A DNA stretch of 64,000 nucleotides from an uncultured Thermoplasmata archaeon. GTDB lineage: Archaea > Thermoplasmatota > Thermoplasmata > Halarchaeoplasmatales > Halarchaeoplasmataceae. The notes under the pieces were generated by a model that was given only the letters and a program-made list of their open reading frames with translations, was not told where the DNA came from and did not search any database. This document shows, piece by piece, positions 298 to 61,619 of this stretch. The stretch covers positions 39,122 to 103,121 of the forward strand of contig CAZHUM010000001.1 of NCBI GenBank assembly GCA_964535805.1. Direction: 5' to 3'. The stretch's first letter is position 1; every line of letters starts with the position of its first letter. Both the position numbers and the translations under genes were made by a program.

Positions 298-298
298 T

Positions 299-1163: not shown

Positions 1164-1167
1164 TTCC

Positions 1168-1650
1168 ATGGGAAAAAACTACAAGCTCGAAAGACCGTCA
1201 TGGGAAGAGTTAGAAATATTGATAGAAGAGTACGGTGACCCCTTCGTTATTTTCTGGAGATACGACATGAAGGAAATCGAATACGTCGATGATCATCCAC
1301 CATGCAAGGGAGAGGCCGTTCTGAAGATGTTCCATGAGGATATGTTAGTGGGGGTAAGGCATCGTGGAGGTGAAAAATTCGTTCTTCCCATGGGGAGGGT
1401 ATGGGATAGCGAAAGTTTCGTAGAAGGAGCTGTCAGGGAAGCTAAAGAAGAAACTGGATTCGATATCGAACTTTTAAAATTCGAAGAGATAAGAAAATTG
1501 GAATTCACCTTTTCTAATGCGATTTTGGAAAGATGGCATCTGCTTTTCACCGCACGAGTCATCAATGGAGATGGAATCCCTCGAGATAAGGATGAAATCG
1601 AAGGAGTAAAACTCATGGATGACGTTCCCTGGGCTACGGAGTTTTATTAG
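1168..1650 (+). CDS. NUDIX hydrolase.
   Basis: Complete Nudix box GRVWDSESFVEGAVREAKEETGF (G-x5-E-x7-REUxEExGU). The gene lies 5 nt downstream of the HD gene. Confidence 0.75.
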   Translation: MGKNYKLERPSWEELEILIEEYGDPFVIFWRYDMKEIEYVDDHPPCKGEAVLKMFHEDMLVGVRHRGGEKFVLPMGRVWDSESFVEGAVREAKEETGFDIELLKFEEIRKLEFTFSNAILERWHLLFTARVINGDGIPRDKDEIEGVKLMDDVPWATEFY

Positions 1651-1765
1651 TACTGTAGTCATTTTCAAGGTCTGGACCAACCTGATTATTTTGTTATTTC
1701 TAACTTTGTTTCCATATCCGAAATTGACAACATATTAATATAACTTAAATTGATTTTCTATCTAA

Positions 1766-4793: not shown

Positions 4794-6446
4794 TTAGAGC
4801 ACCTCCTTGATCTTCTCGGCAAGTTTTTCCGGTTCGAAGGGTCTGCCGTCGTACCTCTTGATTACCGCGGATGGACGGAGACCGATCTTATCTCTCAGCT
4901 GTGTGGCGAACTGTCCAGATACGCTCTGCTCCACGACTATAGGCCGGTCGTCGTTGTACTTCTCCAACTCCCAGATCGGCAGTGGTTTCAAGTATCTCGG
5001 CTGTACCACGACGGCGTCTATATCTCCGGCAGAAAGCGCTTCGAGAACGCTGGAGGTCGTGGACCCGTATGTCATGATAACAGGTCCAGAATCACCGAAA
5101 ACGTTCACCGTTTTTATCTCCTTCAATTCCTTCAACAATGCCCTTTGTTTTCTCTCCCTTTTATCGTGCATCTCGGTGATTAACTCCGCGTCCTCCGTTG
5201 TCACTCCGTCCTCCCTGCTCTCGTAGCTGTTCCATCGGATAAAATCTTCTGAAGGTGGGAACTGCAGAGGGGATACACCGTTTTCAGTTAGTTTGTATCT
5301 CTTGTATTCGCCTTTTTCATGGATGATCGGGGGCTTGTAATCCGTCTCATCAACATCTACATCGACGATCATACCGCTCTCGGAAAGATGCTTCTCGGTC
5401 AAAAGGATCCCAGGTGTCTGGAATTTCCAAAGTAGATTCAACATCTGGGCCGTCAAATAAAACGCTTCGTTCACGCTGCCCGGGGAAGCAACCACCCTGG
5501 GAAAATCCCCCTGTCCCTGGTTAAGAGCCATATCCAAATCCGCCTGCTCCGTGTAAGTTGGCACACCCGTCGACGGACCCGGTCTTGATGATAGGACGAA
5601 CAGCACCGGTGATTCAGCCATGCCCGCCAGTGAAAATGCTTCCTCCATAAGAGACAAGCCACCTCCGCTGCTCCCGACCATCGCTCTTGCTCCAACCACC
5701 GTAGATCCGATGGCCATGTTGGCAACCGCGATCTCGTTCTCTGGGTGTACAACTGCTACACCGAGTTCGTCTTTGTGATCCGCTAAAAAATGTAAGATCG
5801 AGGAGGCTGGTGTCATCGGGTACGCATAATATAGGTCTAGACCTGTGGCACATGCACCGAGAGCTATGGCTTGATTTCCTGTGAGCACGGCCTTTTTCTC
5901 TTCACCTCGTTCCAGGTCGAAGCGGGCTCCCAACCCGTCATCGACTTCCTCGTAGACCTTAAGGGCAAATGATACGTTCTCTTCAGCACCTTTGGAGTAC
6001 TCCTGCTCGACGAATTTTTTCATCTCCACCTTATCAACTCCGACCGCCGAACAGAGCACCGCGATACCGGCTACGCCCACTATAAGGTCCGGCCTCGAGT
6101 ACTCTTTGGCTATGGAACTTAAGGGAACATGGACATCTCCACCTTCTATCTCATCGGAGTTGTTCACCACGGTCCCTTTTTCAGAGAGGTGGCCTTTGTG
6201 TTTCTCGTAGCTTCTTTTATCGAGGTTCACCACTAGATCCGCTCCCATGTAGTGACTGTTAATTTCATCCATGGATGTGCTCACGACAGAAAAATTATGA
6301 CCTCCGCGGATCAAACTCTGGTAATCGTCCATCTGGAAGGCATTTCTGCCCATAGATAAAAACAATCTAGCCGCCGTAGTTCCAGCTTTTTTAACTCCTT
6401 CACCAGCTTTCCCACCTATCAAATACGTGAATATCTCTTTTGTCAT
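4794..6446 (-). CDS. korA: 2-oxoacid:ferredoxin oxidoreductase alpha subunit (fused gamma-alpha type).
   Basis: An N-terminal gamma-like domain (IGGKAGEGVKKAGTT) is fused to an alpha domain. It sits directly upstream of korB with no gap. Confidence 0.85.
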   Translation of the reverse strand: MTKEIFTYLIGGKAGEGVKKAGTTAARLFLSMGRNAFQMDDYQSLIRGGHNFSVVSTSMDEINSHYMGADLVVNLDKRSYEKHKGHLSEKGTVVNNSDEIEGGDVHVPLSSIAKEYSRPDLIVGVAGIAVLCSAVGVDKVEMKKFVEQEYSKGAEENVSFALKVYEEVDDGLGARFDLERGEEKKAVLTGNQAIALGACATGLDLYYAYPMTPASSILHFLADHKDELGVAVVHPENEIAVANMAIGSTVVGARAMVGSSGGGLSLMEEAFSLAGMAESPVLFVLSSRPGPSTGVPTYTEQADLDMALNQGQGDFPRVVASPGSVNEAFYLTAQMLNLLWKFQTPGILLTEKHLSESGMIVDVDVDETDYKPPIIHEKGEYKRYKLTENGVSPLQFPPSEDFIRWNSYESREDGVTTEDAELITEMHDKRERKQRALLKELKEIKTVNVFGDSGPVIMTYGSTTSSVLEALSAGDIDAVVVQPRYLKPLPIWELEKYNDDRPIVVEQSVSGQFATQLRDKIGLRPSAVIKRYDGRPFEPEKLAEKIKEVL

Positions 6447-6495
6447 CTTATCATCTCGATTTAACTTCTCCCGATAAGGGAGGAAAGGGATTTGG

Positions 6496-7011
6496 TTACT
6501 CTTCTTCCTGTGTTTCGTCGACGAAGACTCTTTGTTCCATCTTCTGGTCGAACATCATCAGCGCACTTGTGTTGTCTCCGATCATCTTGAGCTTCTCGAC
6601 GATGGTTTCAGCGTTGTCCTCTTCTTCCACCTGTTCGTCCACGTACCACTGCAGCATGTTGTAGGTCGCCCTGTCCTTCTTCCCTTCCGCTAGATCAACC
6701 ATGTTGTTGATACGTTTGGTAACGTACTTCTCGTGCTCAAAGGCATCTTCGAAAGCTTCTAAAGGCGTCTCCCATTCACTTTTTGGCTCATCTATGGCTA
6801 TGAGCTTTACACGACCTCCGCGCTCCTGCAGATAATCGTAGAACTTCATGGCGTGTGTCATCTCCTCCTGCGCTTGGGTCTTCATCCAGTTCTCGAAGCC
6901 GTCTAGGTTCTTCTCTGCAAAATCCGCTGCCATGGACAGGTACAGATAGGCGGAGTACATCTCGGCGTTTATCTGGTCGTTTATCGATCTCTCTATCTCT
7001 TCATCTATCAT
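6496..7011 (-). CDS. Ferritin (non-haem, Ftn-type).
   Basis: Ferritin diiron ligand pattern: EMYSAYLYLSMA...EEMTHAMKFY...QWYVDEQVEEE. Confidence 0.8.
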   Translation of the reverse strand: MIDEEIERSINDQINAEMYSAYLYLSMAADFAEKNLDGFENWMKTQAQEEMTHAMKFYDYLQERGGRVKLIAIDEPKSEWETPLEAFEDAFEHEKYVTKRINNMVDLAEGKKDRATYNMLQWYVDEQVEEEDNAETIVEKLKMIGDNTSALMMFDQKMEQRVFVDETQEEE

Positions 7012-26678: not shown

Positions 26679-26864
26679 TAAACTTAGAAAGGGGTGTCCC
26701 TTACTATTAATCTAATTGATATATCATAAAGTGTTATACCCTAAAATATATTTAATTCATTTTTTTAAAATCCGAAAAATCAATAAGCTTAATTATCCCG
26801 TATCTATTGGGGGTATATCGCTCTAACCATGGGTTTCATTCAATGTAGCCATGGAGGGATAGGC

Positions 26865-29800
26865 ATGCCGGAATTAAAGTATTCAGAAGACATCGGACGA
26901 TATTTCGAAGAACTCGAAAACAAAGCCAAACAGTGTTACTCCATAGCTAAAAAGGCCAGGGAGAAGGGTTACGACCCGAAGACCGACGTCGAGATACCCA
27001 TGGCCGAAGATCTAGCGGTCAGATGTCAGGAATTGACCGGCATAATGAATACCGCCGACAAGATAAGAGAGCTAACCGATGAATATGGGAATCGGGAAGA
27101 GGTTGCCCTCCTGATCGCAAAAGAGGTTGCTAACAGGGAGGGGGACAAACGAAAAAGGTTGGAGGACGCCATCCGTATCGGTCTAGCTGTTCTTACAGAG
27201 GGTATCTTGGTAGCACCTCTCGAAGGCATAGGTGATGTTCAGATAAAGGGTGGTGGTACCGGTGAGGATTATGCTGAACTCTCATTCGCCGGACCTATAC
27301 GTTCTGCAGGAGGCACCGGGCAGGCGATGAGCGTTCTGATAGCGGATGTCGTCAGAAGAGAGCTCGGTATAGGTGCTTACAAGCCAACACCGAGTGAGAT
27401 ACAGAGGTACAAAGAGGAGATACCTCTTTACAAAAAAGCGAAGAGCCTTCAATACACCCCCTCGGCGGAAGAGATAGAGATGATCGTTAAAGGGTGTCCC
27501 GTCAGTATAAGCGGTGAAGGAACAGAAAGGGAAGAAGTCTCCGGTAATCGGAATTTACCTAGAGTGGATACCGATAGATTAAGGGGCGGGGCATGTCTGG
27601 TGATAGCGGAGGGTATGACGTTAAAAGCCAAGAAACTGAAAAAACACGTAGATAAGTTGGGTATCGAAGGGTGGGAATTTCTAGATGAATACATAAGCAA
27701 ATACTCTTCTGGTAAAAAAGATGATGATGAAAAAGATTTTAAAGGTGTCAAACCCAATTTCAAGTACATCAAGGAAACGATAGCTGGTAGACCTGTTTTC
27801 GGACATCCCAGCGAGAAAGGTGGGTTTAGATTGAGATATGGGAGGAGCAGGACGCTCGGATTGGCTGCCATAGCCGTTAATCCCGCTACTATGTACCTCA
27901 CAGACGAATTCATGGCCATCGGCACCCAAGTAAAAACGGAGCGGCCAGGGAAAGCGGGAGCTGTTACACCATGTGATACGATCGAAGGTCCGACAATTCT
28001 GCTCAAAAATGGAGAAGTAGTTAGGGTACACACAAAGGAAAAAGCGGTCAAACTTAAAAGCAATGTAAAAGAGATTATCGATCTCGGTGAGATACTCATC
28101 CCTTACGGTGAATTTTTGGAGAACAACCATAAGTTGGTACCGGGAGCTTACTGCCACGAATGGTGGGTGCAGGAAGTCGATGAAGAATTCTATCCCGAGG
28201 AGATCGATGCTGAAATGGCTGTGAAACTATCCGTAGAACGAGGATACCCGCTACATCCGAAGTTTATTTACATGTGGCATTACACGGAAAAGGGATCCAT
28301 CGAAGAACTTAGAGGATTTATCTCTCAGAACGGCACAGTCGAAGACGGAAAACTCGTTCTAGAAAACGATGAAGATATAAAAAGCATAATGGAAGATGTC
28401 GGGATTCCACACAGAAGGGAAAGTAAAAAATTATTCATCGATCCTTACAAACCTCTTCTGTTAACACTCGGTTTGAACATGGATGATTTGAGTATCGAAG
28501 GTGAGGGTGGTTCATCGGACATATGGGAGTACCTCAGCGAGATATCTGGTATCAAGGTTAGAAATAAAGGTCCTACATTCATAGGCGCCAGGATGGCTAG
28601 ACCCGAGAAAGCTAAAGAAAGAAAGATGGACCCGCCAGTTCATGGACTGTTTCCCGTGGGAGATGCAGGAGGGTCTCAACGTTTGGTAAGTAAAGCCGTT
28701 GATAAGGGCATAATAGATGTGACAGTTAGTGCGAGGAGGTGCACCTCATGCGGCAAGAGTGGCCCCTTGATTCGATGTTCATGTGGTGGCAGATGTGAGA
28801 TAATCGAAGAACCGCAGAACATCAAGATACCCATGTCATCGATATTCAAGCAGGCTCGAAAGACCCTGGGTGAAGGTGGCAATATCAAGAAGATAAAGGG
28901 GGTGAAAGGGATGATAAACAAAACGAAGACACCCGAGGGGTTGGAAAAGGGGATACTTCGAGCTAAACATAATATATACGTTTTCAAGGACGGCACGTCT
29001 AGATACGACATGACCGACCTGCCAATCACTCATTTTAAGCCAAAAGAAATAGGGCTGTCCATCCAAAAGGCCAGGGAGTTGGGCTACGATCACGACATCC
29101 ACGGCGAAGAGCTAACCGAAGAGGATCAGATCGTGGAGATCAAACCTCAAGACGTGATCGCATCAACAAATTCCGCTGAATATTTAATCAAGATATCCAA
29201 CTTCATAGACGATCTATTAGAAAAGTACTATGGGATGGACAAGTTCTACGAAGCGAAATTTGGAGAGGACCTTATCGGAGAACTTGTTGTCGGGTTGGCA
29301 CCCCACACTTCAGGCGGTGTTCTTGGCCGCTTGATCGGATTCCATAAAGGGCGAGCTGGGTACGCTCATCCGTATTTCCACGCAGCAAAAAGGCGTAACT
29401 GTTTTTCTCCAGACACCAACATATGGGTGAGATCTCATGATGAATGGGAGTTGAAATCCATAAAGGAGGTAGTGGAAGAAAATTTATGTGAAGGGAACTT
29501 AAATTCTGATGATTTTGGTACCGAATATAAATCGATCGATGGGATGCTTGTACCTTCTATTTCTAAGGATGGTGAAGAAGAATTACGGAAGGTGACCCAT
29601 GTTTCTAAACACCCTGCACCTGGGCATAATATTAAATTCAGAACTAGAGCGGGGAGAACAATCATGGTTACCCCCCAACATAAAATGTTGAGGTGGGACG
29701 ACAACTTAGAATTTTGTTATGCCAGCGAGATTGAAAAGGGAGATAAGATCCCCGCCCCTAAACAGATAAATATTGATGGCAGAAATGTAGAGTTAGACCT

Positions 29801-31631
29801 TTTAAAAGAACTATCTGAAATACCTTCTATTAAAAATCAATTGATGATTAGAAAAGTTCCGATAGATTATCTTAAAAAATTGCTGATTAAGGGGCTTTCA
29901 TCAAAACATTATCTCAAAAAATTATCAGAAAGGGTTGACCTTAACAAAAAAACCATCTCTAGCTATGTACAAAGAGCTAGTTTCCCATTTTGGATTTTAA
30001 AAAAGATTTTCGGAAAAGAAATCTATAAGATATTGCCCGAAAATTTAGAATTGGGTATAAAGAGGGACAACATAAATATAAAAAGGTACCTCCGGGTAGA
30101 TGAGGATTTTTGTAGGGTGATGGGATATTATGCCGCAGAGGGTTTCTCTAGGAAAAAAAGGGGGGGTTTCTACCAGATTACTATATGCTCACCAGATAAA
30201 CCGGCTAGGGCATTAATAAAGAAGGTTTTCGAAAGCCATTTGGGAGTAAAGGCATTCGATGAAAATAAATGGAAAGTAACCGTCTCAAGTAATCTAATCT
30301 ATCGCCTTTTTAACGGTGTATTAAAAGTGGGGAAGAATGCACATGATAAAAGAATACCACCTCATATACTTACATCGACTGACAATTGTTTATCTGCTTT
30401 TCTTTCATGTTATTTCTCCGGCGATGGTTCCACATCATCTAAGCGGTTGGACATTAGAGCAAATACAGTCAGTCACAAATTAGCTCATGAAATTGTTTAT
30501 TCTCTGAAAAGATTCGGGATAAATTCCAAATTATATAAAGAAAAAAGGGGTGTTAGCGGTATAGTTAAAAAATTCTATATAGATAATAACATAGACCATG
30601 AAAATAAGATATTTACATCATATATTATTAAAATCACCTCAGAAAATACAATTTTATTTAATGAAAAAATAGGATTTGACCTAAATAGAAAATCGAAAGC
30701 TCTGTCGAATTCAATTGAAAATTCTCCCGTTAGAAGCCAAAGAATGATGACTAATAGGGGAGATATATGGTTGGACGAAATAGAAGATATATCTATAGTA
30801 GAAAAATCTTCAGATTACGTTTATTCTTTGACGGTAGAGGAAAACAATACTCTGATAGCTAATGATTTATATTTAGGACAATGTGACGGTGATGAGGACT
30901 GCGTTATGCTTCTTATGGACGGCTTGCTGAACTTTTCTGAAGATTTTCTGCCTGAAAAGCGGGGCGGTAAGATGGACGCACCACTTGTGCTGACAACCAG
31001 AATAAACCCATCGGAGATAGACAAAGAGGCACACAACGTGGATACCATGTGGAAATATCCATTGGAATTCTATGAAAGGGCTATGGATTATCCCAATCCA
31101 AAAGATCTTACGGATATCATGGAAACCGTGGATAATAGATTGGGCACGAACGAGCAGTACGAGGGTTTCGGATATACACATGAAACATCCGATATATCCC
31201 AGGGTCCGGAAACTAGCAGATACACAAGGTTAAAGAAGATGACGGATAAGATGGAGGCACAGGTAAAAGTAGCACAGATAATCAGAGCGGTAGATACCGA
31301 TGACGTTGTGAGAAGGGTGATATCAGATCATTTTATTCCGGATATGATCGGGAACTTCAACAAATTCTGTGTCCAGACGGTGAGATGTACCGGTTGTAAT
31401 AAAAAATACAGGAGACCTCCGCTGAGTGGTAAATGCACGTGCGGCGGGAATCTAACGTTGACCGTTCACAAGGGAGGGGTAAAAAAGTACCTAGACCACT
31501 CGCTGAAGATGGTTAGAAGGTTCGATCTACCCGTCTACCTAGAACAAAGGGTGGAACAGATCGCCAGTCAGATAGATTCTTTGTTCGAGAATGACAATAT
31601 CTCCAACCCGAGTTTGGATGAGTTCTGTTAA
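26865..31631 (+). CDS. polC: DNA polymerase D (Pol II) large catalytic subunit DP2, interrupted by an in-frame intein.
   Basis: The N-terminus MPELKYSEDIGRYFEEL resembles Pyrococcus DP2. GGAGG lies 8 nt upstream. The conserved extein motif AAKRRN/CDGDEDCVMLL is split by a 494-aa insertion, and C-terminal Cys clusters are present. The extein totals about 1,106 aa. Confidence 0.9.
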   Translation: MPELKYSEDIGRYFEELENKAKQCYSIAKKAREKGYDPKTDVEIPMAEDLAVRCQELTGIMNTADKIRELTDEYGNREEVALLIAKEVANREGDKRKRLEDAIRIGLAVLTEGILVAPLEGIGDVQIKGGGTGEDYAELSFAGPIRSAGGTGQAMSVLIADVVRRELGIGAYKPTPSEIQRYKEEIPLYKKAKSLQYTPSAEEIEMIVKGCPVSISGEGTEREEVSGNRNLPRVDTDRLRGGACLVIAEGMTLKAKKLKKHVDKLGIEGWEFLDEYISKYSSGKKDDDEKDFKGVKPNFKYIKETIAGRPVFGHPSEKGGFRLRYGRSRTLGLAAIAVNPATMYLTDEFMAIGTQVKTERPGKAGAVTPCDTIEGPTILLKNGEVVRVHTKEKAVKLKSNVKEIIDLGEILIPYGEFLENNHKLVPGAYCHEWWVQEVDEEFYPEEIDAEMAVKLSVERGYPLHPKFIYMWHYTEKGSIEELRGFISQNGTVEDGKLVLENDEDIKSIMEDVGIPHRRESKKLFIDPYKPLLLTLGLNMDDLSIEGEGGSSDIWEYLSEISGIKVRNKGPTFIGARMARPEKAKERKMDPPVHGLFPVGDAGGSQRLVSKAVDKGIIDVTVSARRCTSCGKSGPLIRCSCGGRCEIIEEPQNIKIPMSSIFKQARKTLGEGGNIKKIKGVKGMINKTKTPEGLEKGILRAKHNIYVFKDGTSRYDMTDLPITHFKPKEIGLSIQKARELGYDHDIHGEELTEEDQIVEIKPQDVIASTNSAEYLIKISNFIDDLLEKYYGMDKFYEAKFGEDLIGELVVGLAPHTSGGVLGRLIGFHKGRAGYAHPYFHAAKRRNCFSPDTNIWVRSHDEWELKSIKEVVEENLCEGNLNSDDFGTEYKSIDGMLVPSISKDGEEELRKVTHVSKHPAPGHNIKFRTRAGRTIMVTPQHKMLRWDDNLEFCYASEIEKGDKIPAPKQINIDGRNVELDLLKELSEIPSIKNQLMIRKVPIDYLKKLLIKGLSSKHYLKKLSERVDLNKKTISSYVQRASFPFWILKKIFGKEIYKILPENLELGIKRDNINIKRYLRVDEDFCRVMGYYAAEGFSRKKRGGFYQITICSPDKPARALIKKVFESHLGVKAFDENKWKVTVSSNLIYRLFNGVLKVGKNAHDKRIPPHILTSTDNCLSAFLSCYFSGDGSTSSKRLDIRANTVSHKLAHEIVYSLKRFGINSKLYKEKRGVSGIVKKFYIDNNIDHENKIFTSYIIKITSENTILFNEKIGFDLNRKSKALSNSIENSPVRSQRMMTNRGDIWLDEIEDISIVEKSSDYVYSLTVEENNTLIANDLYLGQCDGDEDCVMLLMDGLLNFSEDFLPEKRGGKMDAPLVLTTRINPSEIDKEAHNVDTMWKYPLEFYERAMDYPNPKDLTDIMETVDNRLGTNEQYEGFGYTHETSDISQGPETSRYTRLKKMTDKMEAQVKVAQIIRAVDTDDVVRRVISDHFIPDMIGNFNKFCVQTVRCTGCNKKYRRPPLSGKCTCGGNLTLTVHKGGVKKYLDHSLKMVRRFDLPVYLEQRVEQIASQIDSLFENDNISNPSLDEFC
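29400..30881 (+). mobile_element. Intein (494 aa) in polD DP2 with a LAGLIDADG homing-endonuclease domain, ending in Gln instead of Asn.
   Basis: It begins at Cys (CFSPDTNIWV), sits between KRRN and CDGDED, and carries two LAGLIDADG-type motifs (VMGYYAAEGFS and LSCYFSGDGS). The last residues are ...LGQ followed by extein Cys. Both boundaries are in frame with the CDS. Confidence 0.85.
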
Positions 31632-31642: not shown

Positions 31643-32659
31643 TTAAAATGAAAAAAGGTCCGCTTGCTTATCCATGTCCCTAGCTTCTATTATCTTTTCA
31701 ACTGCGGAACCAACCCGTGATTCCGAGAATCCCCTTTCATCGCACAGAAATTTCTTTATTCCCTCCAGGTCAGGGTCTTGGAATTCGATGACGTACTCAT
31801 CCGTCACTTTGGGATCTAAGAACAGCTTTTGGATGATTTCATAGTTGTTAACGTATACATCGCTACTTTCAAACACACCTTCGATATCTCCATGCTTCTT
31901 GATCTTTTTTAATCCTCGTTTTGGACCGATACCTTTGATGCCGTCGTTGTAATCGGTTCCCATGAGTATAGCGATATCGATGAGCTGCTTTCTCGATATT
32001 CCCAGTTCCCCAAGTGTTTCTTCCAACTTTATCAGTTCCGGCATGACATCTTTGTACTCGTTTCTTCCAGGTAGTTTTCTTCTCCCTGTTATCGTCAAAT
32101 TTCTCACCAGCCTATCCGCACCGCAAAGCAGCGAATCGAAGTCCTGGCTTCCGACAGCCCATGCATCTCCCTTGGTGACCATATGAGCGGCTTGACTCTC
32201 ACCTTCCGCCGGGGCTTGTACGTATGGTATGCCCATCAATTCCAATAGTTTTTTTGCACTTTTCTCTATCTCATCGCTCATCCTGGAAGTCTGCTGTGCC
32301 TTGCTCCTAGCTCTTTCTAGATCTCCCTTATCTAGGGCTTTTTGGTATTCTTTTTCGGCTTCTTTCTTCCTTTTTTTCCTTTTTTCGAGAGTGCCCTCCT
32401 TCATTATATCGGGTTTTCCATCAAAAACGTAGACCAGTTTCAGACCGGACTGCAGTAGATTGGAGTTCCTGTAAAGGAGTCCGGAAAGATGTGACGTTAT
32501 CCTCTCATGGGAATCCATCAGGGGAGTTCCATCTCTTTGCCTTATGCTCGCCAAGAATTGATATATTATATTGTATGCATCTACCGCTATCGCTTTTTCT
32601 TTTAGTTCATCGATATCGATCTCTTTCGACACCACAATATCTCCAAGGGCGACCCCCAT
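31643..32659 (-). CDS. fen: Flap endonuclease 1 (FEN-1).
   Basis: XPG N/I domains (MGVALGDIV..., AIAVDAYNIIYQFL, VYVFDGKPDIMK) and a C-terminal PIP-like tail (KQADLFSF). Confidence 0.9.
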   Translation of the reverse strand: MGVALGDIVVSKEIDIDELKEKAIAVDAYNIIYQFLASIRQRDGTPLMDSHERITSHLSGLLYRNSNLLQSGLKLVYVFDGKPDIMKEGTLEKRKKRKKEAEKEYQKALDKGDLERARSKAQQTSRMSDEIEKSAKKLLELMGIPYVQAPAEGESQAAHMVTKGDAWAVGSQDFDSLLCGADRLVRNLTITGRRKLPGRNEYKDVMPELIKLEETLGELGISRKQLIDIAILMGTDYNDGIKGIGPKRGLKKIKKHGDIEGVFESSDVYVNNYEIIQKLFLDPKVTDEYVIEFQDPDLEGIKKFLCDERGFSESRVGSAVEKIIEARDMDKQADLFSF

Positions 32660-32670
32660 TTTATCAATCC

Positions 32671-33384
32671 CTAAAAGACTTCTCCCTCTGTTTCGACGAT
32701 CAGGCCCTTATCAGTTATGCGGTAGGGTTTCACTTTACGGGTGTGTTCGATCCTCCTCATTTTCTTTACCTGTATGCTCATCTGTACGTCTTGATTTTCC
32801 AGCTGGTTGTATCTAAGTAATATAACACCATCGGCTGTGTACTCGACCAAACCGTCCCTAGAGCTTTCAGGGTTGTCGTCCTTGACTTCCGCGGTAAGGA
32901 GTGCTGTCGCTCCGGATTCTTTGATCTTTTGACAGAGGTCGAAGAGCCGCTTCCTTTTATCCTGTACATCTCCGGAGAGCATGTTCAAGAGGGAGACCGA
33001 ATCGATGGCGATCCTATCCGCTTTAAATTCCTTTATAAACCTCGGAAAATCGCTTTTCAGTTTGTTAATGGTAGCTTCAGCATCGGCAGGACTCAGTTTC
33101 TCTACCATGATCTGTTCGTCCTCGATATAAGGGGCAAAATCCCATCCATAGGACTTGCCTGTTGTGACGACCGCTTCTCTATCTTCTTCAAGTGAAAGGA
33201 AGATGCATTTTTCACCTTTTTCAAGCCCCGCCCATAGATACTGCAGTGCAAAAGTTGTTTTTCCAGTCCCGAAGGACCCCATAACGGTGAAAACGTGACC
33301 TCTAGGGACACCTCCGTAGAGCATCTCGTTCAAACCCTCTATTCCCGTGGTTACTCTTTCTATATTATCATCCATACATATCAC
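32671..33384 (-). CDS. KaiC-like RecA-superfamily ATPase (aRadC-like).
   Basis: GIEGLNEMLYGGVPRGHVFTVMGSFGTGKTTFALQYL is the KaiC-type Walker A context, with Walker B ADRIAIDSVS. The gene lies 11 nt upstream of fen. Confidence 0.8.
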   Translation of the reverse strand: MICMDDNIERVTTGIEGLNEMLYGGVPRGHVFTVMGSFGTGKTTFALQYLWAGLEKGEKCIFLSLEEDREAVVTTGKSYGWDFAPYIEDEQIMVEKLSPADAEATINKLKSDFPRFIKEFKADRIAIDSVSLLNMLSGDVQDKRKRLFDLCQKIKESGATALLTAEVKDDNPESSRDGLVEYTADGVILLRYNQLENQDVQMSIQVKKMRRIEHTRKVKPYRITDKGLIVETEGEVF

Positions 33385-34253
33385 CTAATTTTTTCATAAT
33401 TTACTACGGTATAACCGTCAAGTGCGGATACCTCCGCTGTAAACCTAGCTATCTTCTCCCTCTTCAAATGAGGTAGGACACTCATGAACTTTTCGACTAT
33501 CATGTATCTCTGCCGTTGGGAAGAGCGGTGTGTCTTGGACCATTCGAACTGGATAACTCCGTCTACACTGTCGATTATCAAGTACTCCAAGCTTTTCTCT
33601 ATGATCCCCTTTGTCAAAAGGAGATATACTATGCCACCCCATTTCTTGGATGCTCTTCTCATGCCTTTCAGTATCGTCACAAGTTTATCCTTCTCGATTG
33701 TGTTGTTGGTAAGCAGGTCCGTGAGTGAGTCTACTATCACGATGTTATCCTCAGCATTGGCCTCAAGGAAATCCACGAGTTCCTCCAGGAGATTGGAGTT
33801 GGTATCACTTGAAAAAATAGACGATGTTGATCCATCGGTGGTCCAGCTGTGAGGTACCATGGTCCTTTTGAAATACGCATTAGAAAAGTCTTTGAACAAA
33901 AGAGATTCCTCTATGGCGTCGTAATAATCCTGGTTGAAAGACATCTTTACTTCATCTAGGATGTCTTCTTTCGCCCTTGAGAAAGTCAGGTAGTGGATCT
34001 CCTCTGGCAATATCGATTTTTTACATTCGTCTCCGAGTACTATGTGTATGTTGTCCTTGTCCGGATTTTCTTTTACCCTGAGTATCTTAGCTGCGGAGGT
34101 GTAAGTAAATTCCAGGCCTCCAGCACCTATCTCTGTTAACAGTAAAACAACGGAACCTGCGGGGAGTCCACCCCTGATAATAGAATCTAAATCGCTTACT
34201 CCTGTAGGTATCTTTTTCATATGTGAACTCCTGTCAGACTCATCGTCTGACAA
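33381..34253 (-). CDS. Degenerate KaiC/RecA-like paralog, a predicted pseudo-ATPase.
   Basis: Same fold context (GVSDLDSIIRGGLPAGSVVLLLTEIGAGGLEFTYTS), but the Walker A Lys/Thr are replaced (GAGGLEF). A 4-nt overlap with the downstream KaiC-like gene suggests an operon. Confidence 0.55.
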   Translation of the reverse strand: MSDDESDRSSHMKKIPTGVSDLDSIIRGGLPAGSVVLLLTEIGAGGLEFTYTSAAKILRVKENPDKDNIHIVLGDECKKSILPEEIHYLTFSRAKEDILDEVKMSFNQDYYDAIEESLLFKDFSNAYFKRTMVPHSWTTDGSTSSIFSSDTNSNLLEELVDFLEANAEDNIVIVDSLTDLLTNNTIEKDKLVTILKGMRRASKKWGGIVYLLLTKGIIEKSLEYLIIDSVDGVIQFEWSKTHRSSQRQRYMIVEKFMSVLPHLKREKIARFTAEVSALDGYTVVNYEKIR

Positions 34254-34444
34254 GTGGTGCGTTGGATATAATAGAAAACCCCCATTTTATACTTTACCTT
34301 GATATTACAAATTACAAAAAAGGGAATAATTTTTGTATCTAGTTAACCCTTCTTTATCTCAGATTCACCCTTCCATAATCCTTTTATATTAGATGCTTAT
34401 TAGTTCGATTTCCCTCACTCTTGAATATATATAACGAGGGAATA

Positions 34445-34602: not shown

Positions 34603-34611
34603 TTCATTGCT

Positions 34612-37515
<2,904 letters not shown>

Positions 37516-37523
37516 TGTTTATC

Positions 37524-39348: not shown

Positions 39349-42300
39349 ATGAGGTTTAGCTTGCCTAATCTAAGCAAAAAAACAGAAACACGGAAGCACG
39401 TCGATGAGTCAATATTAGAGAAACACTGGGGTACCATAGTCTCGCTTTTAGGAATATTTTTCCTAGCATTCTTTATACGTACCTACTTCGCTTTCGATTT
39501 AGCGACAAAATACGGAACGCCTTATTTGTTGTCAGGAGGGTCTGACGCATATTATTATGGTAGGATCATCGACTATATACAAACCAATCATCAGCACCTT
39601 ACCTTCGACCCATTATTGAATTACCCGATGGGTTCTAGAAATCCTCGTCCACCTATATTCGCCTGGTCTATAGTTCTGATAGGACATTTACTAAGCCCAT
39701 TTGTAGGCAGCGTGAACGTGGGGATCAACTACGCATTCATTTTATCTACAGGGTTCTGGGGTGCTCTAACTATCTTCCCAGTATATCTCATCGGAAGGGA
39801 TACTTTCGGGAAAAAGGCCGGGATGGCTGCTGCGTTTCTATTAGCCATAAGTTCTGGTCATCTACAGAGAAGTCCTATTACTAACGGCGATCACGATGCG
39901 ATCTACCTTTTCTTCATCGTGACGGCATTCTACTTCTTTATGAAAGCTCTTGAGGGCATACCAGATGAGAAAAATTGGATATCCTCTTACAAGGATCCTA
40001 GTGCCATTAAGAACGGATTAAAACAATTTGTAATGGAGAACAAGAGGTCTTTGCTTTATTCCGGATTGTCCGGTATGTCAATAGCATCCGTAGCTCTTAT
40101 CTGGAAAGGGTATGCCTACGTCATAGTTATTCTGATAGTCTACTACTTCATACAATTATTCATTGACCGATTAAGAACGAGAGATTCTTTGGGGATAACG
40201 GCCTGCATCGGAATATCAATAGGTTTGGCTTTCCTAGTTTCCTCACCATACTATCTCATTGTTGGAATCGGACCTAGGTATTTTGATATCCCACTGTTGA
40301 TGTTCGCCGCTGGTTTTGGAGTAGGTATATTCCTTACGGTTACACGGGATTGGCCCTGGGTTCTCACCTTTTCCATCATCATCGCCGGACTTGTCGTATT
40401 TATATTATTGGGATTATACGTATTACCGAGCTTATTAACCGCACTGACAAGTGGTGCTGGTTACTTTGTTCAAACCAAAGCCATATCCACTATCGCAGAG
40501 GCTCAAGCTCCAGCGTTCAGTAATCTGGTGATGTCATTCGGATTGGTATCATTCTTCCTTTCCATAGCAGGCATTGGACTCGCGATATGGCACTTTAAAA
40601 ATAGTTGGAAAACGAACTTTCTTTTAATCTTATTGTGGACAGCACTTGCCATCTACATGGCTATGTCCGCTGCGAGGTTCATTTTCAATTCTTCCCCTGC
40701 ATTTGCCCTGACAGCTGGTTGGGTCATTGCATTGGTGGTCGACAAGACTGACTTCCCCGCCATATCAAAAACATTCCAAAGTTTCAAGGGGGATGTGTTG
40801 TACGGCATTTGGAAGAGCGTCAAGCTGAGACATGCAACCGTTGCGGTTTTCGTTGTTTTCATGATTATGGTTCCAAATGCTATGTATGGAATGGATTCTG
40901 GAATACCTTATGAAGAGAAAGAGGGATACAACAAACAGATACACAGAGCACTTCCCGAACCCATTAGACCTGAAGGATACAATGCATCTAGTGGAGACAA
41001 TTGGTACCTCGGTGCTTTCGGATATGCATTGGATAAACCAAATGAATACTGGCCCGCATCGTGGGAGTGGTTGGCCCGTCAAGACAACGATAAAGAACCA
41101 GCGGAGAGACCTGGTTTCTTAAGTTGGTGGGACTACGGTTTCGAGTGCGCTAGACAGGGCGATCATCCCACTGTGGCTGACAACTTCCTTAACGGACATC
41201 AGCTGGCCGGTAACGTACTCATGGCTCAGAATGAATCCGAGATACTTGCTCTATTCATTACTAGAGAACTTGAAGATACATACAGTAAAAGCGATGGATT
41301 TGACGACGACATAGAAGAAATACTCATCGATTATATCGGTGAAGAGAAAACCCATGAGTTAGAAAGAACATTTAAGGATCCAGAGAGATATAAAGAGGAG
41401 GTTCTATCCAACCCGGAAAAATATCACCCAAGGGACGAAGATTTGGATAGACATAATATAAAATACGCAAGGTGCATGGGGATGTTGTCTTACGAGGGGC
41501 TAGATACCCTTGGAGAATTGTATAGAGATATCTCATTAAAGATAGATAAAAGGATCAAGTATATTGCAATGGATACAAGATTGTTTCCATTCTCTGGAAC
41601 GAACACGGGCATATTCTATGCACCAGCAAAATTATCCGGACACCGTATCTACGAGGAACATGGTATGCGGACACCCATCGATTTTTACAAGGTGCTTTTG
41701 GTAGATGAACAAGGTAATGAGTACGAAAACCCAGATAAAGTACCCCAGGAGGTCAGTATCACGGATTACAAGATAGATTACCAACCTGCGTTCTTCAATT
41801 CCACCCTGTATAGAGTGTTCGCAGGGTATTCCGCCCAGGAGATAGGCGAAGGAGAAGGCATTCCGGGTTTAGACAATCAAGAGCTCCAACCTATGCCTTC
41901 ATGGAACATGACGCATTTCAAGTTATCTTATAGGACCGCTTATTTTAACCCGTATCCAAGGGATGAAGTCCGTGATCATCCAGATGCATGGAAGGCGATT
42001 TCATATGAAAAAGCCCTCGAGTACCACCAGGACGATAACGTCACGGTTGATTTGAGCGCCCAAAGTTACATGAGACAGGGTGTGGTTTATTTGGAGCACT
42101 TCGATGGAGCATTGATCTCTGGCAAAGTAACCACCGAAGAAGGCGAGCCCATAGCCAATGCAAGGTTAACCGTTCTTGATGATACCGCGACCCCACATCA
42201 AATGGATTACACGGATGAAGACGGTAGTTATTCCCTTAAAGTCCCTTCTGGAAACATATCCGTTATCGCATCTGTCGGAGGATTGAGCGGAGGGCAAAGG

Positions 42301-45300
42301 GCACAAAATATAGAATCAATAATGCTGGGTGCTTTTTCTATGAACATAAGCGAAGAACAGGCCATGAGAGTGAAAAAAGATAGAGACGGTGACGGAACCT
42401 GGGATTACTTGATAGATAAAAACATAAAGATCGATACAGGTAATCTTACTGTTAACGTATTCGTAGATGAAAACAGAGATGAAAAATTCTCATTTGAAAA
42501 TGATACTTTAGTACCGGGTGAGATTACTATCGAGAACCAAAGAAGTGGTGTTGAATATGTTTCTGAAGAGAACAACGGAAGCCATACGTTCACCGGTATT
42601 TTACCAGGTAAATACAGAGTAACTACGGATGTCGAAGGCGGTATGTCTATTACCGATGTTTCAGTTAAAAGCGGAGCTGAAAATGAAGAGAGTATAATTC
42701 TGACCACCGGATCTATATCAGGAAACGTAGAAATGGATGCTGAAAACATGAATGCGAGCTCCATTGAACTGGTAGTTAAAAACGAAGAAGGAGGCGAGAT
42801 GATCACTAGTTCTATAGACCAGGGCGGCAATTATTCTATCGAACACCTCAGAATTGGAACATATTCAATTCATGTTAATACAGATGGTTTCGCGATAAGA
42901 GAAGGCGCTATTCGATTTATCATAGATGGAGAAGTGAGTTTGACGAAGAACTTCAACATATCCCGAGCTGAAAGGGTGAATTTGAGGACTAAAACGTCCA
43001 ATAAACTGCTCCCCTATCAAAAAATATCATTCATCGACAAAGAAAACTATCGATACTCCCAAACCATACAAACTGGTAAAGAGGGGAAAACAGAGATAAA
43101 ACTGCCCTTGGGAAAATACTTGGTATATGGGACCGTGCAAAGGGATAATAAGTTCTACGTACATATGAACACGATAGAAGTAACGGAGGAAGTCAACTAT
43201 ACTGCTGAGTTGGTAAGGGGATTCCAAGTCGAAGGTCAAGTTGATTCATCGGAGATAACGTCCAATATGGGGAGTAATATCTTGTTCAGCTTGGATGAGG
43301 ACAAACAGGGCTTGGCAGCCACAAACAGAGAAGGCCTGTACTCGTTAGTGGTGGAGCCCGGAGATTACAATATTTTCGGGTGGAACACGGTGGGTGCGAC
43401 CAGTTCTTCATTCTGGAAAACGGAAACCATCGACAGCGAAACGAAAATAGATTTCGAGACAAAGGTATCCTATCGTGCTAGTGGAAACGTTTACAGGGAC
43501 CTGAATCTAAACGGCCAATATGATAAAGGAGAGGGGATATCTACAGAGATCAAGGTCACTGTGTCGGGCAACAATTACTTCTTCGATTCAGGATTTGATG
43601 GGAATTATACACTGATCTTACCGGAAAAGGAATGTAGGATCACGTTCTCCAAAGCGGGATACATCCAAAAGAGTGTGATATACGACCCGGAGGTCGAATT
43701 TTCACGCAACATCAATATGAATGCTAAAAACTTGTCAGTACACGGAGATATAATCTGCAACAAGGAGTTCTCTTCACTACCCGTCAAATTTGATCCTTTG
43801 TCTAAAGGCGCTGTACTGAACGAGATATCCGTTAATAATTCTGAATACACAACAGGATTACAGCCGGGTGATTATGAAGTGACGATCTACTCTAGTCCGT
43901 CCGAAGGAGAAAGATACATCTACTCAACATTTGTAAGCCTTGAACCTGGTGAAGAGGATATAGAATTAGATCTTCCTGTTAAATACCAGGTGAGGATGAC
44001 GGGTAACATCTTCGGACCTGCAGGAGATAGTACATATGCAGAAATACGATTATCGGGCCCAGAGGTGCGCACCTTGTCGGGTAACGGCACGTATTCAGGC
44101 TATTTCGCACCGGGTAACTACACGCTATGGGCTGTGAATAAAGAAGAAGAACTAATCAATCAAACTGAGGTTTCACTTGTATCGCCTATACAGTTGAATA
44201 TCACCATGGAAGATGCCCATATATTTTCCCCGTTCGTTACCTTCGATGAAGAACCTAGGGATAACCTACCAATAATGTTCGAACAGATAGAAACGGGATT
44301 CGTGTTCAACCAAACGACGGATCCGGATGGAACCTTCAATTTACCGCTTGTAAGTGGGACATATGAAGTGACTGTGGATTACGAAACTACAGAACCCGTT
44401 GAAGGGGTTCTGAGAGATGTACGTTATCACTATTCGGACACCTTTGTGATCGACTCACACATGGCACCTGAGATAGCTTTGAACAGGGACATAATCAACG
44501 TTACTTTAGAGGGTGTACTCAAAGCAGATGATGAGACTGTCCAGGGGGCCACTATTGAATTCATAGCAAACGGCCCAGAATCCATGGATACAGAAGTCAC
44601 GACGGGGTCCGATGGGACTTATCAGCTTGATATCTCCCGGGGGTTATACACCGTCTATTGTCATGTGTCAGGAAGTAAAGGATTATATGCACAATTCAAC
44701 GAATTCATAATGCCCGAAGCTAATGAAACTTTGAACATCAATCTCTCCAAAGCATACAAGATAACAGGTAAAGTGAGTAAAGACTCTCAGGATGTCGAAG
44801 CCGACATCAAAGTTTCCTCTATGAAAGGGGTTGGTGAGAAGATATTCCACTCCGATAAAAATGGAGAGTATGAGATAGTACTCCCATCCGGGGAATACTT
44901 GATAACCGTGACTGAATCAGTGGGCGGAGATAACGTATATAAAGCATCAGAAAGGATAGAGTTGGAGTACAGCTTGAAAAAGAACTTTGTTCTCAAGATG
45001 GTCAAAGAATACGGTATCGAAACTGAAGAACTGATAGAAAAAACAGTAAAGCAGGGAGATAATATCAGTTTCGAGGTAAAAGTCAAGAACACTGGAAACA
45101 CTAAGGACACCTACGAGTTCTCGGCACCTAAAGCAATTTGGGACATTGAATTCACGCCTAAAAAGATGACTGTAGAAAACGGTAAAACCGACACTTTGAT
45201 AGTGGACGTTCACGTATCTGAAGACGCATCTGCAAATCATCCACCCATCTCTTTCAATATAGATTCTATGAACTCCGAAAAGGCAGAAGAAGTTACTCTT

Positions 45301-45804
45301 CCAATCGAAGTAAAACAGGTATACGGTGTCGATGTAGTTCCCGTCGCAATGAGAACGGTTTACGATAATGGTAAACTTACATACCGTGTGAAAGTTGAGA
45401 ACAGCGGAAACGGGGATGACAGCTATAAATTATCTCTGCTCAACAAAGGATACCTTGAATCACAGGGATGGGAAGCTTCAGTTAACAATGAAACGGAAAC
45501 GATCACGGATGGTGGCCAAGAAGAGATAGAAATAACACTTAAGGCGAGATCAAGTAAGCCCAGCAGGAAAGTTGATGTAGAGTTAGAAGTCGTTTCTAAT
45601 GGGGATTCATCGGTTTATGAAGAAGAAGTACTAGAGGTTGTCCTACCAGAGATTCAATCAAGTAGCGATAATTTCTCACTTCACGGAAAGAATCTTGCTA
45701 CTGAGAAAGAGAAACTGGAGATCACGACAGGTCAGTGGTCGGTTATAATCATACTGGTGTTGATCTCTACATTCTATGTGGCTAGGAAGAAGAGGTGGAT
45801 ATGA
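39349..45804 (+). CDS. aglB: Giant AglB/STT3 oligosaccharyltransferase (2,151 aa). It comprises a 13-TM STT3 core with a WWDYG periplasmic domain, then about 1,100 aa of tandem CarboxypepD_reg/Ig-like beta-sandwich repeats and a C-terminal TM anchor with a polybasic tail.
   Basis: GGSDAYYYGRI first-loop acidic motif, multi-TM N-terminus and FLSWWDYGFECAR motif. Repeated G-K/N-V-x-x-x-x-G-x-P-I-x-x-A-x-(L/V)-T-V and D-(E/G)-x-G-x-Y modules run from about residue 900 to 2,050. It ends ...WSVIIILVLISTFYVARKKRWI. AGGTGA RBS is present. Confidence 0.85.
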   Translation: MRFSLPNLSKKTETRKHVDESILEKHWGTIVSLLGIFFLAFFIRTYFAFDLATKYGTPYLLSGGSDAYYYGRIIDYIQTNHQHLTFDPLLNYPMGSRNPRPPIFAWSIVLIGHLLSPFVGSVNVGINYAFILSTGFWGALTIFPVYLIGRDTFGKKAGMAAAFLLAISSGHLQRSPITNGDHDAIYLFFIVTAFYFFMKALEGIPDEKNWISSYKDPSAIKNGLKQFVMENKRSLLYSGLSGMSIASVALIWKGYAYVIVILIVYYFIQLFIDRLRTRDSLGITACIGISIGLAFLVSSPYYLIVGIGPRYFDIPLLMFAAGFGVGIFLTVTRDWPWVLTFSIIIAGLVVFILLGLYVLPSLLTALTSGAGYFVQTKAISTIAEAQAPAFSNLVMSFGLVSFFLSIAGIGLAIWHFKNSWKTNFLLILLWTALAIYMAMSAARFIFNSSPAFALTAGWVIALVVDKTDFPAISKTFQSFKGDVLYGIWKSVKLRHATVAVFVVFMIMVPNAMYGMDSGIPYEEKEGYNKQIHRALPEPIRPEGYNASSGDNWYLGAFGYALDKPNEYWPASWEWLARQDNDKEPAERPGFLSWWDYGFECARQGDHPTVADNFLNGHQLAGNVLMAQNESEILALFITRELEDTYSKSDGFDDDIEEILIDYIGEEKTHELERTFKDPERYKEEVLSNPEKYHPRDEDLDRHNIKYARCMGMLSYEGLDTLGELYRDISLKIDKRIKYIAMDTRLFPFSGTNTGIFYAPAKLSGHRIYEEHGMRTPIDFYKVLLVDEQGNEYENPDKVPQEVSITDYKIDYQPAFFNSTLYRVFAGYSAQEIGEGEGIPGLDNQELQPMPSWNMTHFKLSYRTAYFNPYPRDEVRDHPDAWKAISYEKALEYHQDDNVTVDLSAQSYMRQGVVYLEHFDGALISGKVTTEEGEPIANARLTVLDDTATPHQMDYTDEDGSYSLKVPSGNISVIASVGGLSGGQRAQNIESIMLGAFSMNISEEQAMRVKKDRDGDGTWDYLIDKNIKIDTGNLTVNVFVDENRDEKFSFENDTLVPGEITIENQRSGVEYVSEENNGSHTFTGILPGKYRVTTDVEGGMSITDVSVKSGAENEESIILTTGSISGNVEMDAENMNASSIELVVKNEEGGEMITSSIDQGGNYSIEHLRIGTYSIHVNTDGFAIREGAIRFIIDGEVSLTKNFNISRAERVNLRTKTSNKLLPYQKISFIDKENYRYSQTIQTGKEGKTEIKLPLGKYLVYGTVQRDNKFYVHMNTIEVTEEVNYTAELVRGFQVEGQVDSSEITSNMGSNILFSLDEDKQGLAATNREGLYSLVVEPGDYNIFGWNTVGATSSSFWKTETIDSETKIDFETKVSYRASGNVYRDLNLNGQYDKGEGISTEIKVTVSGNNYFFDSGFDGNYTLILPEKECRITFSKAGYIQKSVIYDPEVEFSRNINMNAKNLSVHGDIICNKEFSSLPVKFDPLSKGAVLNEISVNNSEYTTGLQPGDYEVTIYSSPSEGERYIYSTFVSLEPGEEDIELDLPVKYQVRMTGNIFGPAGDSTYAEIRLSGPEVRTLSGNGTYSGYFAPGNYTLWAVNKEEELINQTEVSLVSPIQLNITMEDAHIFSPFVTFDEEPRDNLPIMFEQIETGFVFNQTTDPDGTFNLPLVSGTYEVTVDYETTEPVEGVLRDVRYHYSDTFVIDSHMAPEIALNRDIINVTLEGVLKADDETVQGATIEFIANGPESMDTEVTTGSDGTYQLDISRGLYTVYCHVSGSKGLYAQFNEFIMPEANETLNINLSKAYKITGKVSKDSQDVEADIKVSSMKGVGEKIFHSDKNGEYEIVLPSGEYLITVTESVGGDNVYKASERIELEYSLKKNFVLKMVKEYGIETEELIEKTVKQGDNISFEVKVKNTGNTKDTYEFSAPKAIWDIEFTPKKMTVENGKTDTLIVDVHVSEDASANHPPISFNIDSMNSEKAEEVTLPIEVKQVYGVDVVPVAMRTVYDNGKLTYRVKVENSGNGDDSYKLSLLNKGYLESQGWEASVNNETETITDGGQEEIEITLKARSSKPSRKVDVELEVVSNGDSSVYEEEVLEVVLPEIQSSSDNFSLHGKNLATEKEKLEITTGQWSVIIILVLISTFYVARKKRWI

Positions 45805-61607: not shown

Positions 61608-61619
61608 GTGTTTTTTAAA

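Follow-up and report, generated by a model that had tools for sequence, protein, structure and literature searches.

To our knowledge, the single-domain KaiC-like ATPases of archaea are numerous and almost entirely uncharacterized. The present study concerns a locus in a 64,000-nt stretch of contig CAZHUM010000001.1 from an uncultured Thermoplasmata archaeon (this whole stretch is referred to as the window), at which three consecutive genes on the minus strand encode, in this order, a KaiC-like paralog that lacks a Walker A motif (gene D), an active KaiC-type ATPase (gene A) and flap endonuclease 1 (fen1). The comparison with other archaeal loci that is reported below led to the result that the conserved unit is the D-A pair and that FEN1 is no part of this unit.

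Several described systems are close enough to the pair to allow a comparison. Judged from profile scores, A belongs to the KaiC family and to TIGR03880 (KaiC_arch_3, AF_0351), to which it conforms by passing the family cutoff, by its single KaiC domain and by the presence of all ATPase motifs. The NCBIfam match of A, however, says nothing about a dead partner, and we know of no experimentally defined function for the family. ArlH (FlaH), a KaiC-like protein of the archaellum that regulates the ATPase ArlI, sets the precedent that such a protein can serve a different machine as an accessory. It shares the single-domain KaiC fold with the proteins of the pair, and the model of D superposes on the FlaH structures 4yds and 4wia, but no arlI or arlJ genes neighbour the D-A pair, and ArlH is a single gene product instead of a dead/active pair. 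Non-catalytic RecA-fold subunits that are combined with an active partner are present in Rad55-Rad57, in Rad51-paralog complexes and in Elp4/5/6. This likeness is an analogy only; the respective matches of D are below the thresholds, and neither orthology nor a role that involves DNA or tRNA is supported. Lastly, RadB is encoded by a small RecA-family gene that can share what looks like an operon with a gene of the replisome, and radB is located beside the PolD genes in Pyrococcus. RadB is, however, another family (A reaches 34 bits, compared to a cutoff of 172), and radB-fen1 pairs are sporadic, with two cases in 80 FEN1 loci.

Two further comparisons can be based on the literature. According to the excerpted text of Makarova, Koonin & Albers 2016 (PMC4858521), two KaiC families, arCOG01172 and arCOG01173, are perhaps co-transcribed with VirB11/TadC in Methanomicrobia. 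The D-A pair of Methanoculleus sp. 7T adjoins such a module, but the Thermoplasmata pair is not located beside pilus genes, and the excerpt mentions neither a dead member nor FEN1. The aRadC proteins (RadC1, RadC2 and SSO2452), which include RadC of Sulfolobus, are KaiC-like single-domain proteins that have been implicated in the control of recombination and are marked by a DNA-stimulated ATPase activity and an interaction with RadA (PMC4080772). SSO2452 is the best match of D in the PDB with respect to both sequence and fold, but aRadC proteins keep their Walker A motif, and no linkage to RadA was seen for the D-A pair.

The D-A pair and its conservation

The conservation of the gene order was analysed with one genome per GTDB species; 199 relatives of D were retrieved, and the best 80 loci were included in the analysis. 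Thirty-six of these loci, in which D is at least 67% identical to the protein of the window, are referred to as the window clade, the named genera of which belong to Candidatus Halarchaeoplasmataceae, while the other 44 loci are from other Thermoplasmata (Methanomassiliicoccales and others), with D proteins that are 50-56% identical. The nearest relatives are uncultured haloalkaliphilic Thermoplasmata, with an identity of 96% for L001. Gene A directly follows gene D in all 80 species-level loci, two of which are cut by a contig end. The pair was also found in three further Thermoplasmata lineages, which were reached via homologs of A and carry genes for a haloacid dehalogenase (HAD) hydrolase and DJ-1 as well as purC downstream, and, outside of the Thermoplasmata, in Methanocorpusculum, in Methanoculleus sp. 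7T, in Syntropharchaeales and on one unassigned contig (L090). Both partners of the pairs outside of the Thermoplasmata are confirmed by profile scores (for Methanoculleus sp. 7T, 233 bits of the D homolog with the D profile and 220 bits of the A homolog with the A profile), and the A-type partner genes of L090 and of Methanocorpusculum sp. (L087) match TIGR03880. The initial annotation of the window had put forward the idea that a dead and an active paralog act together, and this idea gains strong support from the adjacency of D and A in 80 of 80 loci and, in addition, in Methanomicrobiales and Syntropharchaeales. These results show that the D-A cassette is old, widespread in Thermoplasmatota and Halobacteriota, and has been co-inherited across at least two archaeal phyla.

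The Methanocorpusculum locus L087 has two peculiarities. The Walker A motif of the "active" partner (5874..6617) is GQVGTGRTM, with an arginine replacing the P-loop lysine, and the gene is followed, after a gap of 2 nt, by that of an unannotated protein of 250 aa with a hydrophobic segment. Judged from these motifs, both partners may be catalytically impaired in this lineage.

Gene D (33381..34220, minus strand) encodes a putative KaiC/RecA-fold pseudo-ATPase of 279 aa. The pairing of a Walker-A-dead with an active KaiC-like protein, as it had been proposed in the initial annotation, is real; at the Walker A position, D of the window has the sequence GEIGAGGLE, in which the lysine and the threonine are both gone, compared to GSFGTGKTT in A. 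The match of D to PF06745 has a score of 33 bits (cutoff 26.6) and is confined to the N-terminal 45 residues, and TIGR03880 was unreported for D in the profile scan. The profiles of the D and A families could nevertheless be aligned with hhalign (92.5% probability, 201 columns), and in this alignment the Walker A motif GsfGTGKTT of the A family corresponds to GdiGAGG(L/H/N)E in the D family, the catalytic glutamate pair in SLEED to TFSRS (EE replaced by SR), the Walker B motif IDSVS to IDSLT, with the aspartate kept, and the motif KMRRxxH, which contains the lysine/arginine finger and the histidine, to KFMSVLPH. As judged from this alignment, D is devoid of the nucleotide-binding and catalytic residues and, as a tentative assignment in the case of the finger, also of the trans-acting residues.

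The fold of D is predicted to be KaiC/RecA-like. An AlphaFold2 model of the protein (predicted local distance difference test, pLDDT, of 73.5; predicted template modelling score, pTM, of 0.77) was matched by Foldseek with a probability of 1.0 to SSO2452, KaiC CI, FlaH/ArlH and PH0284, with target-normalised template modelling (TM) scores of 0.52-0.63, and the low-confidence internal stretches of the model (residues 56-63 and 126-142) coincide with the regions in which, according to the profile alignment, D exceeds A in length. The sequence match to SSO2452, the best one in the PDB, has only 35 bits, and a match to PAXNEB/Elp4 is faint and below the threshold.

An exhaustive search of 1.84 billion cluster representatives with the hidden Markov model of the D family retrieved 400, 186 and 91 members at E-values of at most 1e-3, 1e-10 and 1e-30, respectively. 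The P-loop is degenerate in nearly all of 150 representatives of the family, and GKS has been kept by a few distant members from Hadesarchaea. Among 12 homologs of D, with identities of 52-100%, the mean column identity is 70%, and many residues are invariant in a family-specific manner. The possibility that D is a decaying pseudogene was rejected in view of the intact gene in 80 of 80 loci, the mean column identity of 70% across orders and the 186 representatives at an E-value of at most 1e-10. The strong conservation despite the loss of the catalytic glutamate pair and of the aligned arginine finger argues that D is an old pseudo-ATPase partner under purifying selection. It should be noted that the frame of the D homolog in locus L021 is open for 684 codons upstream (locus positions 155..2209), through a zinc-ribbon and coiled-coil region, which may be due to the fusion of genes, to the lack of a stop codon or to an artefact of ORF calling (ORF, open reading frame).

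Gene A (32671..33375, minus strand) encodes a single-domain KaiC-family ATPase of 234 aa, which matches PF06745 with 194.7 bits (residues 11-232) and TIGR03880 with 251.1 bits, just over the cutoff of 249.45. The motifs GTGKT, LEED, DS and KMRR..H are invariant across 12 homologs. The best sequence matches in the PDB are the CI domains of KaiC, of which natural ones score 168-171 bits and that of the designed protein 8zn5 scores 207 bits, and the Pyrococcus proteins PH0186 and PH0284 score about 100-107 bits. With bit scores used as a proxy for the placement relative to the aRadC clade, the label "aRadC-type" that A had been given initially finds no support, since natural KaiC CI reaches 168-171 bits and the aRadC protein SSO2452 only 93 bits.

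The circadian clock protein KaiC contains two tandem KaiC domains and has a length of about 500 aa. An identity of A with this protein was rejected; A has one domain and 234 aa, and its scores are 106.8 bits compared to a cutoff of 546 (TIGR02655) and 146 bits compared to a cutoff of 408 (NF006799). The initial view that the locus has no clock function is therefore reasonable, A being a single-domain protein far below the cutoffs of the KaiC equivalogs. No KaiB-like gene is present among ten scanned window neighbours, which are housekeeping and glycosylation genes, although no search aimed at KaiB was made. Three further identities were rejected, namely RadB (33.7 bits for A, compared to the TIGR02237 cutoff of 172.4, with D unreported by the model), ArlH/FlaH (NF052589, cutoff 215, with 58.2 bits for A and 28.9 bits for D) and a role in anti-phage defence (PADLOC matched neither D nor FEN1, and its match to A was confined to the P-loop, with 21 bits).

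The three minus-strand ORFs of the initial annotation were confirmed, including their positions, and the arrangement is not a chance pattern of ORFs, because hundreds to thousands of conserved homologs exist for all three proteins. The ORF of D is open to the TTG at 34253 (33381..34253, 290 aa) and that of A to the GTG at 33384 (32671..33384, 237 aa). A database protein that is 100% identical to D has 279 aa and starts at ATG 34220 (P0001), one that is 100% identical to A has 234 aa and starts at ATG 33375 (P0121), and the starts of the longest ORFs are probably mis-set. The 4-nt junction between D and A that had been annotated holds true as a GTGA overlap when A is read from GTG 33384, whereas the likely start at ATG 33375 results in a spacer of 5 nt. 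In the related loci, the spacer between D and A has a median of 5 nt and, apart from a single outlier of 120 nt, ranges from -12 to 27 nt (n=78).

A Shine-Dalgarno-like heptamer, AGGTGAT (33380..33386, minus strand), spans the stop codon of D and is located 4 nt before the ATG of A, which suggests translational coupling of the two genes. The heptamer is complementary to the 3' end of archaeal 16S rRNA, the gene of which lies outside the window. The gap of 11 nt between A and fen1 (32660..32670, minus strand) had been annotated exactly and has no room for a promoter; elsewhere in the window clade this spacer has a length of 8-28 nt, with a median of 12 nt (n=35 loci). Internal promoters would not fit into the locus, because the spacing of D and A and of A and fen1 is too tight, whichever of the starts are used.

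The linkage to fen1 and the transcription signals

The third gene, fen1 (31643..32659, minus strand), encodes flap endonuclease 1 with 338 aa. The protein matches TIGR03674 with 471.5 bits (cutoff 351.95) over residues 1-337 and contains the domains XPG_N (64 bits) and XPG_I (88.5 bits). Its C-terminus, KQADLFSF, resembles a PCNA-interacting protein (PIP) motif; in comparison with Qxx[LIM]xx[FY][FY], the glutamine, the leucine and one aromatic residue are in register, and the final aromatic residue is absent.

Of the 36 window-clade loci, 35 have fen1 directly behind A, the exception being L035, which retains the pair without fen1. In most of the fen1-linked loci of the clade, the convergent PolD gene is retained as well, as is the divergent 23S rRNA gene if enough of the upstream flank had been captured. 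Because the neighbourhood is largely collinear, the conservation of the linkage within the clade is explained by shared ancestry. The 44 loci of other Thermoplasmata, of which 38 extend for at least about 1.9 kb downstream of A, contain no FEN1 gene up to a distance of 6 kb from the pair. The recurrent neighbours in these loci are the genes for LonB, the nicotinamide mononucleotide (NMN) adenylyltransferase NMNAT and CinA upstream, and purC or genes for glycosyltransferases and radical S-adenosylmethionine (SAM) proteins downstream. The linkage to fen1 is likewise absent from the pair loci of the three further Thermoplasmata lineages, of the Methanomicrobiales and of the Syntropharchaeales. 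About 11 of the Methanomassiliicoccales loci have a gene for Hel308 on the other strand, three to four genes upstream of the pair; it was considered as a link to DNA repair and was rejected as being too far away and too inconsistent.

The linkage was also analysed in the reverse direction, by a metagenome scan of 80 diverse archaeal FEN1 loci with flanks of 3 kb. An ORF of the RecA superfamily was present nearby in three of these loci (3.75%), namely two RadB-fen1 loci and one locus with a divergent KaiC-like gene, and 77 of the 80 loci had no neighbour from the RecA/KaiC family. The rate expected by chance is roughly 3%, assuming that a genome has about 2,000 genes, that about ten of them belong to the RecA/KaiC family and that each locus includes about six neighbours. 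Since the observed 3.75% is close to this rough estimate, FEN1 is not generally linked to RecA-fold ATPases. In other lineages, the context of fen1 consists of genes for aminoacyl-tRNA synthetases or of a methyltransferase gene. The initial annotation had interpreted the locus as a dedicated module for flap processing or repair and had named the conservation of the three-gene synteny in relatives as a check; this synteny turned out to be restricted to the window clade (35 of 36 loci, compared to none of 44 other loci; in the reverse direction, three of 80 FEN1 loci had any neighbour from the RecA superfamily), and the proposed module does not stand with respect to conserved linkage. The adjacency to fen1 is lineage-specific, and it is no demonstration that the pair acts on flaps.

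The transcription signals of the window clade are concentrated upstream of D. A BRE/TATA-like element (BRE, B recognition element), GGTAAAnTATA, is common to 13 window-clade upstream regions, and its core, G..AAA.TAT, is invariant in their alignment. In the window, this element is GGTAAAGTATAAAAT (34284..34298, minus strand), which precedes the start codon of D by about 65-80 nt, and, judged from the archaeal promoter consensus, GGTAAAGTATAAAAT would be the promoter of the D-A-fen1 unit. About 35 nt downstream of it, and 13-31 nt ahead of the start codon of D, the leader contains two palindromic boxes, GTCnGAC-N4-5-GTCnGAC (34233..34251, with no strand assigned). The 64 kb contain a single copy of the double box, compared to 0.02 copies expected from shuffled sequences. 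Of the 36 window-clade loci, 18, including the fen1-less L035, have the double box at the corresponding position, and it is present nowhere else in those loci. The spacer of this conserved palindromic motif varies by one base among relatives, which argues that the region from TTG 34253 to ATG 34220 is a leader and not coding. The half-sites of the boxes are invariant and the centre bases do not covary, so that covariation gives no support for an RNA hairpin, and a protein operator is somewhat favoured over it. No comparable promoter or leader element precedes fen1 in the window clade, the TATA element and the leader being present upstream of D only. The tight spacers and the restriction of the conserved promoter and leader signals to the region before D make it likely that D, A and fen1 are co-transcribed in the window clade.

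The proposed switch and alternative roles of the pair

The explanation that we favour, with a little more than even confidence, is that the pair represents a two-gene KaiC-family switch, which in one lineage lies upstream of fen1 by gene order. D and A would most likely form a stable hetero-oligomer, and both this prediction and that of a switch are derived by analogy from the hexamers of KaiC, ArlH and RadC, in which ATP is bound at the subunit interfaces. Within such a complex, A would be responsible for ATP binding, hydrolysis and possibly autophosphorylation, while D, itself without catalysis, would limit or gate the active sites, and the family-specific motifs of D (FKDFSxxYFxRTxVPxSW, KGMxRxSKKW, SxRQRY and EKFMSVLPHL) could form a surface for a client or a signal. 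The pair would then operate as a nucleotide-dependent switch, as has been proposed for archaeal KaiC-like ATPases, and would be comparable to ArlH/ArlI and to pairs of Rad51 paralogs. In the ancestor of the haloalkaliphilic window clade, the cassette would have come to sit directly upstream of fen1, and in this clade one D-A-fen1 transcript would start from the conserved TATA element and carry the palindromic leader.

Several points weigh against this explanation. In rings of the KaiC type, a lysine or arginine of the neighbouring subunit completes each ATP site, and a strictly alternating ring of A and D would not have a single complete site, because D lacks the P-loop and the aligned arginine finger. 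D does contain an invariant RQRY, 6-8 residues upstream of the aligned position of the finger, which might replace the aligned arginine finger. Arrangements in which D caps or interrupts oligomers of A, binds to a ring of A or is present as a separate tier seem more plausible. Concerning the position of fen1, locus L021 has retained D-A-fen1 though its adjacency to PolD has been lost, and this persistence, together with the clade-specific leader motif, is compatible with selection for the co-expression of FEN1. Furthermore, another archaeal lineage has an independent pair of radB and fen1, with an overlap of 1-11 nt between radB and the start of fen1; it was found in two of the 80 diverse FEN1 loci and, in addition, in L094 (4325..6020), where RadB scores 246 bits with TIGR02237 and the overlap with the start of fen1 is 11 nt, with L098 and L099 as relatives.

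The analysis of the D-A pair has two implications. An ATPase of the TIGR03880 type that has an obligate dead paralog encoded directly upstream in at least two phyla would be a concrete target for two-subunit biochemistry. In addition, the locus illustrates that a tidy-looking operon that includes a DNA enzyme can owe its existence to an accident of gene order within one lineage.

Among the alternatives, it is unlikely that the pair is an ArlH-like accessory of a pilus-type ATPase (PilB3/VirB11 with TadC); in the organism of the window, it would act in trans on a pilus locus in another part of the genome. This idea stems from the loci outside of the Thermoplasmata, where a PilB3/TadC module is the only recurrent functional neighbour of D homologs. 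In Methanoculleus sp. 7T, the D-A pair (L095, 1155..6529) is divergent to the genes for a PilB3-type T2SSE ATPase and T2SSF/TadC, and a Hadesarchaea relative of D with an intact Walker A motif (GKS; L088, 250..5798) is located beside genes for ParA/MinD, PilB3 and T2SSF, without an adjacent A partner. The possible co-transcription of arCOG01172 and arCOG01173 with VirB11/TadC (PMC4858521, excerpt) points in the same direction, as does the resemblance of the D model to structures of FlaH/ArlH, with target-normalised TM scores of 0.61-0.63. However, the 80 Thermoplasmata loci contain no T2SSE or T2SSF gene up to 6 kb from the pair, none is present among the ten scanned neighbours in the window, and A reaches only 58 bits compared to the ArlH cutoff of 215. 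Moreover, Methanomassiliicoccus is, according to the excerpted text of PMC4858521, without VirB11-family ATPases, and the Methanomassiliicoccales loci keep the pair nevertheless; control of a pilus therefore cannot be the sole role.

It is improbable that D and A are a dedicated regulator or loader of FEN1, which would act in flap processing, Okazaki fragment maturation or repair, similar to helper RecA paralogs. The organization of the window fits such a role, with three genes on one strand, spacers of 5 and 11 nt, a single conserved promoter and leader before D, and the gene for the large subunit of PolD abutting the cluster. The order D-A-fen1 has been kept in 35 of the 36 window-clade loci, even without an adjacent PolD gene in L021, the overlapping radB-fen1 pair has arisen independently in another lineage, and crenarchaeal KaiC-like RadC proteins modulate RadA (reviewed in PMC4080772). 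Nevertheless, shared ancestry accounts for the conservation in the clade, where the neighbourhood is collinear, and FEN1 is missing within 6 kb of the pair in the 44 other Thermoplasmata loci and also in the three further lineages, the Methanomicrobiales and the Syntropharchaeales. The 77 of 80 diverse FEN1 loci that have no RecA/KaiC neighbour correspond to about the level of chance, A stands nearer to genuine KaiC than to either aRadC or RadB, and a search of one literature library found no paper that ties archaeal KaiC-like proteins to a flap endonuclease. A functional link to FEN1 in the window clade would add a new regulator to the biology of the archaeal lagging strand or of repair, but this is unlikely on present evidence.

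A narrower version, which is decidedly improbable, would be that the window clade has recruited the pair as a replisome-linked accessory that is co-expressed with FEN1, beside PolD, under the control of one regulated promoter, and that governs flap processing or the restart of replication by recombination. If this were true, the radB-fen1 operon found elsewhere would make it a case of recurrent coupling of small RecA-fold ATPases to FEN1.

It is very improbable that D and A represent a KaiC that was split into its N-terminal and C-terminal halves, with D and A forming stacked homo-hexameric rings, one structural and one catalytic. The order of D and A with their putative translational coupling mimics the CI-CII tandem, a separate ring of A would be more plausible than an alternating ring without a complete active site, and there are many double-ring ATPases in which one tier is inactive. 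However, the listed homologs, which have lengths of about 230-310 aa, include no fusion of D and A, A aligns best to CI, the N-terminal tier, and not to CII, and D is too divergent to be assigned to a tier.

Flanking genes and other features of the window

On one side of D-A-fen1, the gene for the large subunit of PolD (DP2, 26829..31631) is convergent with fen1, from the stop codon of which it is separated by 11 nt. In the region for the catalytic domain, it is interrupted by an intein (roughly 29409..30881), which has a length of about 490 aa and includes a LAGLIDADG homing-endonuclease domain. In tblastn comparisons, many relatives lack the residues of DP2 from about 859 to 1351, and several (e.g. 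L005, L006 and L017) align across this stretch; these differences between the alignments indicate that the intein has a patchy distribution among the species of the clade.

On the other side, a complete archaeal 23S rRNA gene (34607..37520) is divergent from D-A-fen1. It stands alone, and no match to 16S or 5S rRNA was found across the 64 kb. A lone divergent 23S rRNA gene recurs in the related loci that have enough upstream flank, where it is apparent from clusters of spurious ORFs, and this recurrence points to an unlinked rRNA operon.

Further along, an ORF of 2151 codons (39349..45804) encodes a protein with an N-terminal oligosaccharyltransferase domain of the STT3/AglB type and many CarboxypepD_reg/transthyretin-like repeats, and it is followed by genes for a CARDB protein and for glycosylation. 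The end of the window, from 60324 to 64000, has a very strong purine skew on the plus strand (GC skew 0.38-0.48, AT skew 0.34-0.53). The source of the skew is the gene for a coiled-coil protein that is rich in glutamate and lysine and has an N-terminal double zinc ribbon (60324..61607), and beyond position 61607 the sequence is purine-rich with 21-nt tandem repeats up to the window end.

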